Shown here in pieces: positions 20,205 through 40,744 of a stretch of DNA of 64,000 nt. A model generated the notes under the pieces. It was not told the origin of the DNA and did no database searches. It saw nothing but the letters and a program-made list of their open reading frames with translations. Both the position numbers and the translations under genes were made by a program. Source of the stretch: Escherichia coli (GTDB lineage: Bacteria; Pseudomonadota; Gammaproteobacteria; Enterobacterales; Enterobacteriaceae); NCBI RefSeq assembly GCF_044324785.1, contig NZ_CP172127.1; one strand, written 5' to 3'. Within the stretch, counting starts at the first letter, position 1. Every line of letters begins with the position of its first letter.

Positions 20205-20312
20205 GGCCGTGTCCACATTACGTGGGTAGGATCACTCCACCGTCACACCCGATGGGATTGTTGGGTTTCTCATCGTTAGCTACCGATTCTATATTCCAGA
20301 CAGACTCGAGGT

Positions 20313-20654
20313 TTATTTAAGAATCCATACCTGCTCGGCCTCCAGCACAGAAAACCGACACTCAAGCAGACTCGGCAGGCTGGTATGCTCCTGGCGGGCA
20401 TTTTTGTACTGATATTTTCCGGGCTGAGCACTTCTCAGGTTCAGATGCTTCATCAGCCGCCTGGCACGACAACTGCTCATCGGGATACCATTTTGAATCA
20501 GCATATCTGCCAGAGCACGCGCACCTGCGGAACCCCGACTCTGGTTCCAGACCCGGACTGTTTCGCTATACAATTTGATTCGCGCCGGATCAATCGTATT
20601 GAGCCGATTCTGCCAGTGCCGGAACTGCTGCAATGAGCATCCAGAGCAGCGCAA
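20313..20654 (-). pseudogene. IS3-family OrfB N-terminal fragment
   Basis: [34 protein letters not shown] fits the conserved OrfB N-terminal region; no DDE domain follows. Confidence 0.5.
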
Positions 20655-20785
20655 AGACTGACAATCGTGTGTCGCCGCTCAGTCTGGTAACTATCGTAAA
20701 CCGTTCAGTGGGAAGGATATCAAGAGCACTGTAGCTTTTTAATATCGTTTTTTGTTCCTCCAGGCGACGAACCTGCTTTTCCAGT

Positions 20786-21040
20786 TCATGAATACGTTGC
20801 TACTCTGATGTGAGTGGTGATGCAGAAGACGTGGTATCCTGACGTTCCCGCCTGAGCTGACGTACCCATGCCCCCCAGTGTATAGGAACCGACATTCATA
20901 GCTTCACTGGATTCCCGGTATGAGTAACTTTTATTAACGATAAGCCAGGCTATTTGTGCATTGGTGTTGAGGTGAGAATAGCACCAGTCAGGTGAGCAGA
21001 TTATAATGTTACGAGACTTAAGCACCTCTGTAGCTCCCAT
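20786..21040 (-). pseudogene. IS3-family OrfA-like fragment (leucine-zipper end reachable only in arm B frame)
   Basis: Arm B copy reads ...[23 protein letters not shown] followed by [22 protein letters not shown] coiled coil; arm A copy is frameshifted. Confidence 0.4.
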
Positions 21041-21881
21041 GGTCTGATAGTTTCTCCCGTATACCGCTCATGCAACTCCCGCATTAAAATATACTGTTCC
21101 TTCCGGATAATTACGTTAAAATATACACCTGCGTGCATCTGTGTCAGACTCCGTTAGATACCAGCGTACATTGTAAACATGCCGGATGCACGCAATACAA
21201 TAATCGGTCTTTTCGGAGTTATAGTCACCAGGCTGGCATCCCGTAAATATGTATCAGGTAGCAATTCAGGAAGCGAACAAAAGCGCCTGGAGAAGGTTAT
21301 CTCTGATAATAATTTACATGAAATGTCTCCTTTATTCTTCGCGAATAAGGCCTTCAGTGTTCTCCCCTTTTCAGCAATTCTTACCGTAGTAATCACTCCT
21401 GCCTGTGTATAACACGAGAATTGCCAGAGTTTAACGTTTCGGTATCGTTATCCTGCATGATGTTGAACAGAACCGGGCGTGAATTCTGCGCCAGAATTTT
21501 CTTTCGAGGAACATTCCGGGTTATCTGTAGTACAGGAGGAGATTTTCTCCTATTTCAAATAAAATTCAATGACAGGTGAATATTTAAATATAAATGCATC
21601 GCTTCAACAGAGAAATCGGAATTACGCCCGGAACCAGGCCTGAATGAATAATGGAGGAGGTAAAATAATATTATTGATGAAAATATCAAATTAAGTCCCC
21701 CTTCTCCTTCCCCAGCTTAAATATACTTACTTTTTCACTGGATAATATGTTATTGAATTACAAAGTTGATCCTGATATACATGATTTCCGGCTCTTGCAT
21801 CCAGTGATAACTTTATATAGTCCTGCAAAGGCGAACTTCGTAAAAGTATACTTTTCTGTTGTAAGCATTGAGGTATCGAAA

Positions 21882-22106
21882 ATGAGTGAGAATACCGGAA
21901 AATCCCATGAAAATAAAATGGTTATTATTGACTACGGGGAATATGATGAATACCTTCGTAACGCGTGGTTCCGAGGTTTTCGGGAAGGTTATGATATGGC
22001 GATGAAATTTGGATTAGGCTGCCAGCAATGTTATGAAACAGGTGAAAAAATAGCATGCGCAAGAGCTGAAGAATGCCGTAAAAAGATTAAGGTAATAAAA
22101 CACTGA
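21882..22106 (+). CDS. Hypothetical small Cys-containing protein, 74 aa
   Basis: MSENTGKSHENKMVIIDYGEYDEYLRNAWFRGFREGYDMAMKFGLGCQQCYETGEKIACARAEECRKK; GAGGT upstream of ATG; conserved in arm B (37307..37531) with two substitutions. Confidence 0.35.
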   Translation: MSENTGKSHENKMVIIDYGEYDEYLRNAWFRGFREGYDMAMKFGLGCQQCYETGEKIACARAEECRKKIKVIKH

Positions 22107-22234
22107 AACGGGCTGTCTGATATTTCTGTGAGCTAAAAAGACACCGTAATACAGGTATCTCACAGTAACTGAAAGATATGCACATGCCGCCAGGGAAGAT
22201 TAAGGGTAAGGGAGGATATCCCTTACCTGATTGA

Positions 22235-22759
22235 TTATGGGATGATACCACAGGCAATTCTTGCACCACCGCCACCTAGAGGTTCAGGATGGTCATCATG
22301 ATTATCACCTCCTGCGTGGAGCATTAGCGAACGGCCATCGAGCTCCTTTAATTCAGATAGTCTTGGCGCAAGCACCGGGTAGGTTGCTTTTCCGTCATGA
22401 GTGACATAAAGCGCAGGGAGATCACCCAGGTGGCCATCAGGAGACCATGGACCGAGATGCTTCCCTGTTTTTTCCGGGTCAAAGTGACCACCTGCAGATA
22501 AAGCAGCGACAGTTTTTCCATCTTTCAGGGCAGGAGCACAACTTGCGTTTTCATGTACATGAAAACCATGAATGCCGGCGGGTAAGGAGTGAAGATCAGG
22601 GGTGAACAGCAGCCCGTAGGGTGTCTTCTGGATGGTTATTTTACCAATATTTCGCTCTTTTCCGTCACTATCAACAAGATTCATTGTTACATCTTTGGTG
22701 GCTGCATATCCACAGGATGATGTAGCCAGAATCACAAAGGCAATAAGTTTACGTTTCAT
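22235..22759 (-). CDS. sodC: Periplasmic Cu/Zn superoxide dismutase, prophage-type SodC
   Basis: 174-aa ORF with signal peptide, [34 protein letters not shown] motifs; differs from chromosomal E. coli SodC and resembles phage-borne SodC. Confidence 0.9.
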
Positions 22760-38360: not shown

Positions 38361-39266
38361 CTATATTTCCAGACACCTGTTATCACTTAACCCATTACTG
38401 GCCTGCTGCCGCAGATATTCCCGTGGCGAGCGATAACCCAGTGCACTATGCGGATGCCATTCGTTATAATGCTCGAACGCCTCTGCAAGGTTCTTTGCTG
38501 CCGTTAACCCGTCTGGTTTAGGCATGATACTGATGTAGTCACGCTTTATCGTTTTCACGAAGCTCTCTGCTATGCCGTTACTCTCCGGACTCCGCACCGC
38601 CGTGTTCTTCGGTTCAAGCCCCAACATCCGGGCAAACTGCCGTGTTTCATTAGCCCGGTAGCATGAACCATTATCCGTCAGCCACTCTACTGGAGACGCC
38701 GGAAGCTCGTTGCCGAAGCGGCGTTCCACCGCTCCCAGCATTACGTCCTGTACTGTTTCACTGTCGAAGCCGCCCGTAGTGACTGCCCAGTGCAGTGCCT
38801 CACGGTCACAGCAGTCCAGCGCGAACGTGACTCGCAGTTTTTCTCCGTTATCACAGCGGAACTCGAACCCGTCAGAGCACCATCGTTGATTGCTTTCTTT
38901 CACGGCCACTTTGCCAGTATGTGCCCGTTTCGATGGCGGTACAGCGGTTTTTCGCTCAAGCAACAGCGCATTCTGGCGCATGATCCGGTAAACACGTTTG
39001 GCATTGATCGCAGGCATACCATCAAGTTCGGCCTGTCTGCGAAGCAGCGCCCATACCCGACGATAACCATACGTGGGCAGCTCTCCGATAACATGGTGTA
39101 TACGGAGAAGCACATCCGTATCATCTGAGTGACGGCTGCGGCGACCATCTTTCCAGTCATCGGTTCGTCTGAGAATTACGTGCAACTGCGCACGCGACAC
39201 CCGGAGACAACGGCTGACTAAGCTTACTCCCCATCCCCGGGCAATAAGGGCGCGTGCGCTATCCAC
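38361..39266 (-). CDS. insD: IS2 transposase InsD (orfB)
   Basis: 301-aa [33 protein letters not shown]...[22 protein letters not shown]. Confidence 0.9.
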
Positions 39267-39589
39267 TTTTTTGCACGCCCGTATTCAACGGCTTCTTTAA
39301 GGAGTTCATTTTCCATCGTTTTTTTGCCGAGCAGGCGCTGGAGTTCTTTAATCTGCTTCATGGCAGCAGCAAGTTCAGAGGCAGGAACGACCTGCTCTCC
39401 TGCGGCCACAGCAGTAAGACTTCCCTCCTGGTATTGCTTGCGCCAGAGAAATAACTGGCTGGCTGCCACACCGTGTTGCCGGGCAACAAGGGAGACCGTC
39501 ATTCCCGGTTCAAAACTCTGCTGAACAATAGCGATCTTTTCCTGTGTAGTACGCCGTCTGCGTTTCTCCGGTCCTAAGACATCAATCAT
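39224..39589 (-). CDS. insC: IS2 InsC (orfA)
   Basis: [52 protein letters not shown]...; the track ORF is extended upstream to 39634. Confidence 0.85.
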
Positions 39590-39708
39590 CTGCTCTCCAA
39601 TGACTAGTCTAAAAACTAGTATTAAGACTATCACTTATTTAAGTGATATTGGTTGTCTGGAGATTCAGGGGGCCAGTCTAAGCGGTATACGGGAGAAACT
39701 ATCAGACC

Positions 39709-39948
39709 ATGGGAGCTACAGAGGTGCTTAAGTCTCGTAACATTATAATCTGCTCACCTGACTGGTGCTATTCTCACCTCAACACCAATGCACAAATAGC
39801 CTGGCTTATCGTTAATAAAAGTTACTCATACCGGGAATCCAGTGAAGCTATGAATGTCGGTTCCTATACACTGGGGGCATGGGTACGTCAGCTCAGGCGG
39901 GAACGTCAGGATACCACGTCTTCTGCATCACCACTCACATCAGAGTAG
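39709..39948 (+). pseudogene. IS3-family OrfA-like fragment (copy of 20786..21040)
   Basis: Same sequence as arm A with a frame difference. Confidence 0.4.
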
Positions 39949-40093
39949 CAACGTATTCATGAGCTGGAAAAGCAGGTTCGTCGCCTGGAGGAACAAAAAA
40001 CGATATTAAAAAGCTACAGTGCTCTTGATATCCTCCCCACTGAACGGTTTACGATAGTTACCAGACTGAGCGGCGACACACGGTTGTCAGTCT

Positions 40094-40435
40094 TTGCGCT
40101 GCTCTGGATGCTCATTGCAGCAGTTCCGGCACTGGCAGAATCGGCTCAATACGATTGATCCGGCGCGAATCAAATTGTATAGCGAAACAGTCCGGGTCTG
40201 GAACCAGAGTCGGGGTTCCGCAGGTGCGCGTGCTCTGGCAGATATGCTGATTCAAAATGGTATCCCGATGAGCAGTTATCGTGCCAGGAGGCTGATGAAG
40301 CATCTGAACCTGAGAAGTGCTCAGCCCGGAAAATATCAGTACAAAAATGCCCGCCAGGAGCATACCAGCCTGCCGAGTCTGCTTGAGTGTCGGTTTTCTG
40401 TGCTGGAGGCCGAGCAGGTATGGATTCTTAAATAA
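40094..40435 (+). pseudogene. IS3-family OrfB N-terminal fragment (copy of 20313..20654)
   Basis: Identical to the arm A product except C-to-Y at one position. Confidence 0.5.
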
Positions 40436-40744
40436 ACCTCGAGTCTGAATCGGTAACCAGCTGTTATATTCTGAATTATTACAATAGCGTCAGGCCTCAT
40501 AATTACACTGTGGGTTGACGCCGGAAGAATCAGAGAACAGATACCGTTCTTACTGTAAAACGTGGCTAATATTAATTGAGCACTGCAGTGTTCAGAGCAC
40601 AAAGAAGAAAAAAGATGTGTGCGAATGCCTGTAATGTGTTAAAAGAATGTTCCGCGTTTCCGGTACGCTTTTCGTAACTAACAATGCAGGGTGACGTAAC
40701 GCTGGTTGTGCCGGAAACGCGTCCCTCCCCCTATCTTTCCTGTT

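Follow-up and report, generated by a model that had tools for sequence, protein, structure and literature searches.

The window analysed here, a 64,000-nucleotide stretch of the Escherichia coli contig NZ_CP172127.1 (RefSeq assembly GCF_044324785.1), contains a long inverted repeat, one copy of which lies at 20292-22823 (arm A) and the other at 36590-40456 (arm B). Both arms encode a periplasmic Cu,Zn superoxide dismutase (SOD), SodC, and the 13,766 bp of unique sequence between them (22824-36589) carry the sitABCD genes and an ATP-binding cassette (ABC) transporter operon. An earlier note on this DNA had described the arrangement as a large inverted duplication bracketing a potentially invertible cassette. 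Comparison with other E. coli genomes points elsewhere: the two arms probably belong to two different island segments, which would have been fused at an 86-bp relic of the insertion sequence (IS) IS2.

A repeat search returned three collinear inverted pairs (21063-22823/36590-38350, 20872-21068/39681-39877 and 20301-20875/39873-40447). Joined together, they make up one arm of 2523 bp, with an insertion dividing the second copy: 20301-22823 in arm A has its partners at 36590-38350 and 39681-40447 in arm B. With the insertion excised and its target duplication reduced to one copy, global alignment of the arms gave 99.5% identity, with 12 substitutions and one 1-nt indel, and the longest identical stretch, of 635 bp, at the inner (sodC) end. 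A 2.5-kb match at this identity is far beyond anything expected by chance. Similarity continues for 9 nt past 20301 and 40447 (‘TACCGATTC’; arm A has a 12-nt indel here), which puts the true outer ends at about 20292 and 40456. The earlier note had set these limits at 20262 and 40470, within 30 nt of the ends found here but overshooting them by 30 and 14 nt.

The insertion in arm B is a complete IS2 of 1331 bp (38350-39680, minus strand) with open reading frames (ORFs) of 136 and 301 amino acids, delimited by its junction sequences and bracketed by the 5-bp target duplication AGCGG at 38345-38349 and 39681-39685. Because arm B alone holds this element, IS2 must have arrived after both arm copies existed, as the earlier note had proposed on the same ground. 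Its account of the repeat was sound in other respects as well: the long inverted repeat is real, the products of the two arms are either identical or one substitution apart, each arm has one intact sodC, and the spacer, put at 13.8 kb, does hold sitABCD, a locus for a ROK-family regulator, a glycerophosphodiester phosphodiesterase (GDPD) and an ABC transporter, and IS debris.

From the outer end inward, each arm consists of a fragment of an IS3-family transposase gene, about 900 bp without a family match, an ORF of 74 amino acids and sodC. The transposase remnant fills the outer third of arm A (20301-20957, minus strand) and has its counterpart in the outer part of arm B (39792-40447, plus strand). 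It is frameshifted and has no IS ends; its match to the NCBIfam model transpos_IS3 reaches 53.6 bits against a cutoff of 160 bits and spans profile positions 108-220 of 369 only, and sequence identical to the arm A remnant is annotated as a pseudogene by RefSeq. The 74-residue ORF lies at 21882-22106 (plus strand) in arm A and at 37307-37531 (minus strand) in arm B, the two copies differing by one residue (Y18C); it is WP_001470144.1 in collinear genomes. Neither this ORF nor an 80-residue ORF of the arm was assigned to a family in NCBIfam and PHROG searches. The sodC genes, at 22235-22759 (minus strand) in arm A and 36654-37178 (plus strand) in arm B, are intact and without any difference between them. 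Their 174-residue product matches the SodC model NF007628 over residues 1-173 of 174, at 218.4 bits against a cutoff of 165 bits.

In both copies the repeat ends, on its inner side, 64 nt upstream of the sodC start codon. The sodC of arm B starts 95 nt past the stop codon of the gene for the solute-binding protein of the ABC transporter, on the same strand, and a terminator scan found no terminator-like site between the two. This sodC is likely co-transcribed with the transporter operon, and a periplasmic SOD may thus be the last gene of a nutrient-uptake operon (window 35479-37178). Promoter and terminator scans around both sodC copies returned counts near the shuffled expectation and nothing usable.

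The encoded SodC is 79% identical to the SodC of a Stx2a-converting phage and about 60% identical to the Gifsy-2 and Fels-1 proteins, and it matches the phage moron family phrog_1975. Identity to K-12 SodC is presumably 57%, the K-12 sequence used for this comparison being a lead and not a database record. In the Stx2a phage, sodC lies between tail-assembly and host-specificity genes, and nucleotide homology between arm and phage, at 76.6% identity, begins 9 nt ahead of the ATG and ends about 40 nt past the stop codon. The annotation of collinear loci contains no phage structural gene in the arms or the window flanks. The label ‘phage-type’, which the earlier note had given to these genes, is therefore apt for the protein, which is nearer to prophage SodC than to K-12 SodC, but no phage gene accompanies it. 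Like the prophage sodC morons (Gifsy-2 sodCI, Fels-1 sodCIII and the sodC of Stx2a phage), the window sodC encodes an accessory periplasmic Cu,Zn-SOD; unlike them, it has an ABC transporter or IS debris and not tail genes as neighbours. Taken on its sequence relationships, it appears to belong to a horizontally mobile, phage-associated SodC lineage that is carried here as island cargo away from phage neighbours.

Between the arms, reading from arm A, lie a YagK/YfjJ-like pseudogene with fragments of IS256, IS200/IS605 and IS110 (23125-25788; positions taken over from locus L001, which is collinear and 99.94% identical, as annotated by RefSeq), followed by the iron/manganese ABC transporter operon sitABCD (26121-29591, plus strand), whose four intact ORFs of 304, 275, 285 and 292 amino acids are annotated as sitA-D in the loci L001, L002 and L007. 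An 86-bp mini-IS2 (29858-29943, plus strand), which has both IS2 ends and no interior, separates sitD from a YebF-family pseudogene with an internal stop (30075-30428, minus strand; annotation of the collinear loci L003 and L004). Next come genes for the ROK-family regulator (370 amino acids) and the GDPD (276 amino acids), at 30523-32481 on the minus strand, which are named from annotation, their own matches being below the curated cutoffs. The last unit before arm B is the ABC transporter operon (32682-36558, plus strand), made up of an ATPase, two permeases and the solute-binding protein; it is PotABCD/PhnSTUV-like.

Loci from other genomes were compared with the window by local BLAST, and a collection of 5,426 complete E. 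coli genomes was searched, the arm junctions with queries that included 1.2-1.7 kb of unique flank on each side of the arm. Of the whole region 19000-42000, no record among complete E. coli genomes and plasmids covered 80% or more. Its parts occur in two distinct islands. The order in type 1 is ltrA and IS3 debris, arm A, IS fragments, sitABCD, mini-IS2, IS1, ISL3 and iutA/iucDCBA; the order in type 2 is the gene for an S6 autotransporter protease, AbgT, mini-IS2, the YebF pseudogene, ROK, GDPD, the ABC transporter, arm B, and LysR with a carbamate-kinase cluster. The left part of the spacer, up to 29965, is collinear with type 1, and the right part, from 29827, with type 2. Window 4001-29965 aligns with strain 1517k as one block at 99.94% identity and window 320-29965 with 23CRST013, again as one block, at 99.95%; 29827-38350 together with 39681-50706 align with A3176, PK8276 and 23CRST013 at 99.85-99.96%.

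Of the 5,426 genomes, 51 have the full type-1 arm junction and 21 the full type-2 one. Intersecting the two lists gives 13 genomes with both, six with inverted and seven with direct arms, and the distance between the junctions ranges from 132 kb (in VTB97420v, the nearest) to more than 1.5 Mb. The arm core alone occurs in 121 genomes, in one to three copies each. Two further sodC contexts, one chromosomal and cut by IS66, the other on an IncFII plasmid, keep the last 78-115 nt of the solute-binding-protein gene before sodC and are therefore derived from type 2. A ColV-type plasmid as the origin of the window’s sit genes was rejected, plasmid sit genes being only about 95% identical. A literature search on sitABCD, sodC and genomic islands yielded only general reviews of metal homeostasis, and none on this locus.

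At all 13 sites that discriminate between the window’s arms, arm A has the allele of the type-1 arms of 1517k, AR13438 and 23CRST013, and arm B has that of the type-2 arms of A3176, PK8276 and 23CRST013. Neither arm can be an assembly duplicate of the other, since each has the allele set that its own context has in independent genomes. The idea that a local inverted duplication brackets a cassette does not hold either, as each arm sits in a separate island segment in other E. coli.

Near the joint, only about 140 bp (29827-29965) are common to type 1 and type 2, at about 90% identity; this stretch comprises the mini-IS2 with about 35 nt of common flank on its left and about 22 nt on its right. 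Here, three type-1 loci match the window exactly to 29935; beyond it they show three differences within some 30 nt, after which an IS1 fragment takes over. All 15 type-2 loci (15 of 15) show the same 11 differences at 29832-29924 and are identical to the window from 29925. Type-1 (n = 3) and type-2 (n = 15) loci have one allele set each, and the mini-IS2 of the window has the type-1 alleles through 29924 and the type-2 alleles from 29936. It is a clean hybrid, with a crossover interval of 11 nt (29925-29935). The joint itself, sitD-mini-IS2-YebF, was found in none of the 5,426 complete genomes. A gapped exact pattern for sitD-YebF returned no match among GTDB species representatives or JGI metagenome contigs, and the joint was absent from all ten of the longest-contig neighbourhoods of the exact ROK protein (from 23 of 3,608 index blocks).

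We consider the window to be, most probably, a derived fusion of a type-1 left part and a type-2 right part. The mini-IS2 would then be a relic resembling a miniature inverted-repeat transposable element (MITE) and the point of recombination between the islands. The two arms would be paralogous 2.5-kb modules (IS3 remnant, 74-residue ORF and sodC), each resident in a different pathogenicity-island segment, and recombination within the common stretch of about 140 bp, that is, the mini-IS2 and its flanks, would have joined the segments, leaving 13.8 kb between two sodC modules that are inverted relative to each other. The arms would thus have become neighbours because the segments were joined at the mini-IS2, and the inverted repeat would be a passive by-product, seen in the window in its unflipped, parental arrangement.

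Two routes to such a fusion can be envisaged. One is a large inversion between islands in opposite orientation, which is how 23CRST013 has them; in the other, type-2 DNA would have come in as a replacement, and a second crossover would have taken place in a shared island backbone. The distal part of the window (53000-64000) is 99.9% identical to the type-2 island of strain GF60, and genomes with type 1 only have a homologue of it, at about 95% identity, some 30 kb beyond the sit/aerobactin region. Both island types thus appear to share one backbone, which makes replacement by incoming DNA plausible. Deletion between direct mini-IS2 copies in a GF60-like or VTB97420v-like ancestor was also considered and set aside. 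From a GF60-like layout it would need to remove about 606 kb and was judged unlikely; in VTB97420v the modules are in the wrong order and the right flank, with its BREX genes, is unlike that of the window.

Some points weigh against the fusion account. The direction of the event is read from a single hybrid of about 140 bp. Its crossover interval is just 11 nt, lies between mismatches in sequence of about 90% identity and is short for a classical RecA exchange; heteroduplex repair or an IS2-related event is a possible source of the hybrid. It is also possible that the joint occurs in unsampled draft genomes, despite its absence from the collections searched.

The order of events could in principle be the reverse, with the composite ancestral and types 1 and 2 its fission products, generated by IS1 insertion or rearrangement and by IS3-family truncation. 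Both island types do look truncated at the relevant place: type-1 loci are cut by an IS1 fragment 22 nt past the mini-IS2, and type-2 loci have an IS3-like remnant just to the left of the shared stretch. The distribution of differences, however, is uneven. Up to 29935, type-1 sequence and the window are 99.94% identical, and the three type-1 differences follow within the next 30 nt or so; type-2 sequence is about 99.85% identical from 29925 on, with 13 mismatches in the 8,524-nt block 29827-38350, 11 of which fall in the 98 nt to the left of 29925. Such a pattern fits a crossover between diverged copies and not of a simple truncation of one ancestor. Since, moreover, the arrangement was seen in no other genome in the complete-genome, species-representative and metagenome searches, we regard an ancestral composite as unlikely.

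An assembly artefact, either a chimeric join at the mini-IS2 or a falsely duplicated arm, has two points in its favour: among thousands of genomes no other has the joint, and the place of the join is a repeated element. Yet about 140 bp at about 90% identity are neither long nor similar enough to mislead a long-read assembler, the allele switch is clean, and at the 13 sites where the arms differ both have alleles that really occur in other genomes, which is not what a copy-paste duplicate would give. An artefact is thus very unlikely.

A recent inverted duplication in situ, in which a 2.5-kb sodC segment was copied across a pre-existing sit/ABC cassette, would account readily for arms that are 99.5% identical, have identical sodC ORFs and end at the same nucleotides. 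It is nevertheless highly improbable: each arm occurs with its flank separately elsewhere (in the 51 type-1 and 21 type-2 genomes), the 13 differences that separate the arms are precisely those found between the two contexts in other genomes, and the sit and ABC halves are never adjacent in the other genomes searched.

The earlier note’s suggestion that the repeat is a substrate for homologous recombination is plausible, given its kilobase length and near identity and the mosaic nature of arm copies elsewhere. Among 19 full-length arm copies (six from type-1 and 13 from type-2 contexts), 21 informative sites define 12 haplotypes, and 82 of the 210 site pairs show all four gametes; such mosaic haplotypes mean that the paralogous arms exchange sequence by gene conversion and not by crossover. 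GF60 provides an example. Its arms are inverted, lie about 620 kb apart and differ at five sites, and the inner part of its type-1 arm (L023), at 21782-22427, carries rare alleles of its own type-2 arm (L012), those at 21820 and 21881 being otherwise restricted to type 2. Intragenomic gene conversion appears to explain these shared alleles best. We had entertained the view that the arms are fixed, context-specific alleles in general, and dropped it on account of the mosaic arms; it holds for the arms of the window save at position 22427. At this site, which is synonymous and lies in sodC, arm A of the window has C, like arm B, where the four ‘pure’ type-1 copies of the haplotyped set (1517k, AR13438, 23CRST013 and XH992) have T, and all of the highest-scoring type-1 genomes have at least one mismatch to the window. 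A single site cannot decide between a short conversion tract and an old polymorphism, either of which may account for it.

An inversion of the 13.8 kb by RecA-type recombination would be mechanistically plausible, but the window shows none: all 13 sites that distinguish its arms and all four arm-flank junctions are in the parental phase. A query for the flip junction (left flank, arm and the reverse complement of the solute-binding-protein gene) was covered to 80% or more in no genome among the 5,426. The internal sitD-YebF joint would survive a flip, as it lies within the segment, and its absence from all of these genomes means that they contain the composite in neither orientation.

A flip would also change little. 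Because sodC lies at the inner end of the arm, each copy keeps its own upstream DNA after any crossover between the arms, copy B the end of the ABC operon and copy A the pseudogene/IS256 side. Only dead IS3-family sequence would change partners, and the flip would be close to neutral, with no regulatory consequence expected from the gene arrangement. ORFs of at least 80 amino acids in 17000-44000 are IS fragments, IS2, cargo or antisense, with no invertase, integrase or Fim-type gene among them, and the RefSeq annotation of collinear loci likewise lists no invertase or integrase besides IS transposase fragments. A programmed or selected cassette, whose phase-variation-like flip would alter metal uptake or sodC expression, is barely credible: inverted repeats do bracket virulence-associated cargo and arm paralogues do exchange sequence, but neither the segment nor its vicinity has a recombinase gene, arms of 2.5 kb are not short sites, the flipping unit includes both sodC copies together with every cargo promoter, the outer arm parts being IS debris, and the arrangement is found in one genome only. 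Nothing in the segment points to a functional invertible cassette. We think it most probable that the repeat passively offers a substrate to RecA-type recombination within a mosaic island, as opposed to being a designed genetic switch.

The arms are 13.8 kb apart here and 0.13 to more than 1.5 Mb apart elsewhere, where a crossover could be costly, and one could imagine that RecA-mediated flipping is frequent, tolerated and phenotypically relevant in this strain. We hold this to be very improbable. If it were so, cultures would be mixtures of two orientations differing in flanking read-through or in the replication-transcription orientation of sitABCD and of the ABC/sodC genes, and there would be heritable heterogeneity in manganese/iron uptake or in oxidative-stress defence.

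Chromosomal inversions that depend on RecA are known between long inverted repeats such as IS copies, rrn operons and, in E. coli O157:H7, prophage regions. The arms of the window resemble these repeats in being 2.5 kb long and nearly identical, in lacking a dedicated recombinase and in showing gene conversion across genomes. They differ in that no inversion product was found here and in that the repeated unit is a cargo module of sodC and IS debris instead of an IS, rrn operon or prophage. Unlike replichore-scale rearrangements, a flip would span a spacer of only 13.8 kb and be nearly neutral. Invertible switches, namely fimS with FimB/FimE, the Hin, Gin, Cin and Pin segments and the shufflons, have short repeats of tens of base pairs, an adjacent recombinase gene and a promoter or gene end that is rewired. 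The window segment shares with them that it is bounded by inverted repeats, but these are 2523 bp of genes and IS debris, no recombinase gene is present and nothing is rewired.

The bracketing of cargo by inverted arms with IS-derived sequence also recalls the composite transposons Tn5 and Tn10. Here, however, the arms are not intact IS elements: the IS3 part is an internal fragment without ends, and the sole complete element, IS2, came later and into one arm. Nor is there a target duplication around the 20-kb unit, as the outer flanks (…CATCGTTAGC and ACCAGCTGTT…) share no direct repeat. There is a likeness to the IS-rich mosaic islands of extraintestinal and avian pathogenic E. coli and of Shigella, which have sitABCD cargo, abundant IS debris and modules that were rearranged at remnants of IS elements. 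As in the islands that carry sit, aerobactin and serine protease autotransporter of Enterobacteriaceae (SPATE) genes, relatives have iutA/iuc beside sit and the S6 autotransporter protease beside the ABC module. What sets the window apart from known mosaic islands is the sitD-mini-IS2-YebF join and the close inverted pair of sodC genes, which were in no other genome searched. The locus is one more modular reshuffling in the IS-rich islands of avian and extraintestinal E. coli and calls for no new mechanism, with an exact join unseen elsewhere.

If the fusion occurred as proposed, an IS remnant of less than 100 bp would be enough to fuse two island segments, with a kilobase-long inverted repeat and a doubled virulence-associated sodC as by-products. 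In practice, two identical sodC genes result, of which one directly follows an ABC-transporter operon. The copies are indistinguishable by sequence, so knock-outs must target both, and short-read assemblies of such strains would break or be mis-oriented at the arms. The locus would also be a natural test bed for gene conversion versus crossover between repeats at different chromosomal distances.

The flanks of the repeat contain further island genes. Immediately to the left of arm A lies a gene for a group II intron reverse transcriptase/maturase (ltrA, about 18155-19663, plus strand); in collinear genomes it has an internal stop and is marked by RefSeq as a pseudogene, and in GF60 it is intact. 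Further left, within an IS-dense type-1 segment, there is an additional intact gene for an N-acetylmuramoyl-L-alanine amidase (annotated amiC, about 6764-8023, minus strand), distant from any cell-wall gene cluster. To the right of arm B, from 41109 to about 49500, are genes for a LysR regulator, an ankyrin-repeat protein, AllH-like, FdrA and YlbE proteins, a xanthine permease and carbamate kinase; by gene content this cluster looks like the fdrA-ylbE-ylbF-ybcF allantoin/oxamate region of K-12 and would be a second, horizontally carried copy of it. The distal backbone (53000-64000) encodes a YadA-like adhesin, a ProQ/FinO pseudogene, YagK/YfjJ-like proteins, a helix-turn-helix regulator and an inovirus Gp2-like protein. 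As a scan of the window detected no tRNA gene, an attachment site cannot be assigned. Four type-1 islands were inspected beyond the window (L001, L002, L007 and L023); the annotation of each gives iucD as frameshifted, and the chromosomal aerobactin operon beside this sit copy may be non-functional in those strains.

The IS2 target in the arm was apparently used more than once. The type-1 arm of AR13438 has an IS2-like element (locus L002, 20116-21446) that is 96.7% identical to the IS2 of the window and occupies an identical 5-bp target, flanked by an identical duplication (CCGCT/AGCGG); the matching site in arm A of the window is 21064-21068. Its orientation relative to the arm is opposite to that in arm B, and the two are therefore independent insertions. 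In five more genomes the corresponding type-1 place is about 1336 bp longer (1335 in SMS-3-5), and the type-2 arm of GF60 has a third IS2-like copy about 555 bp away. The arm thus contains an apparent hotspot for IS2 insertion.

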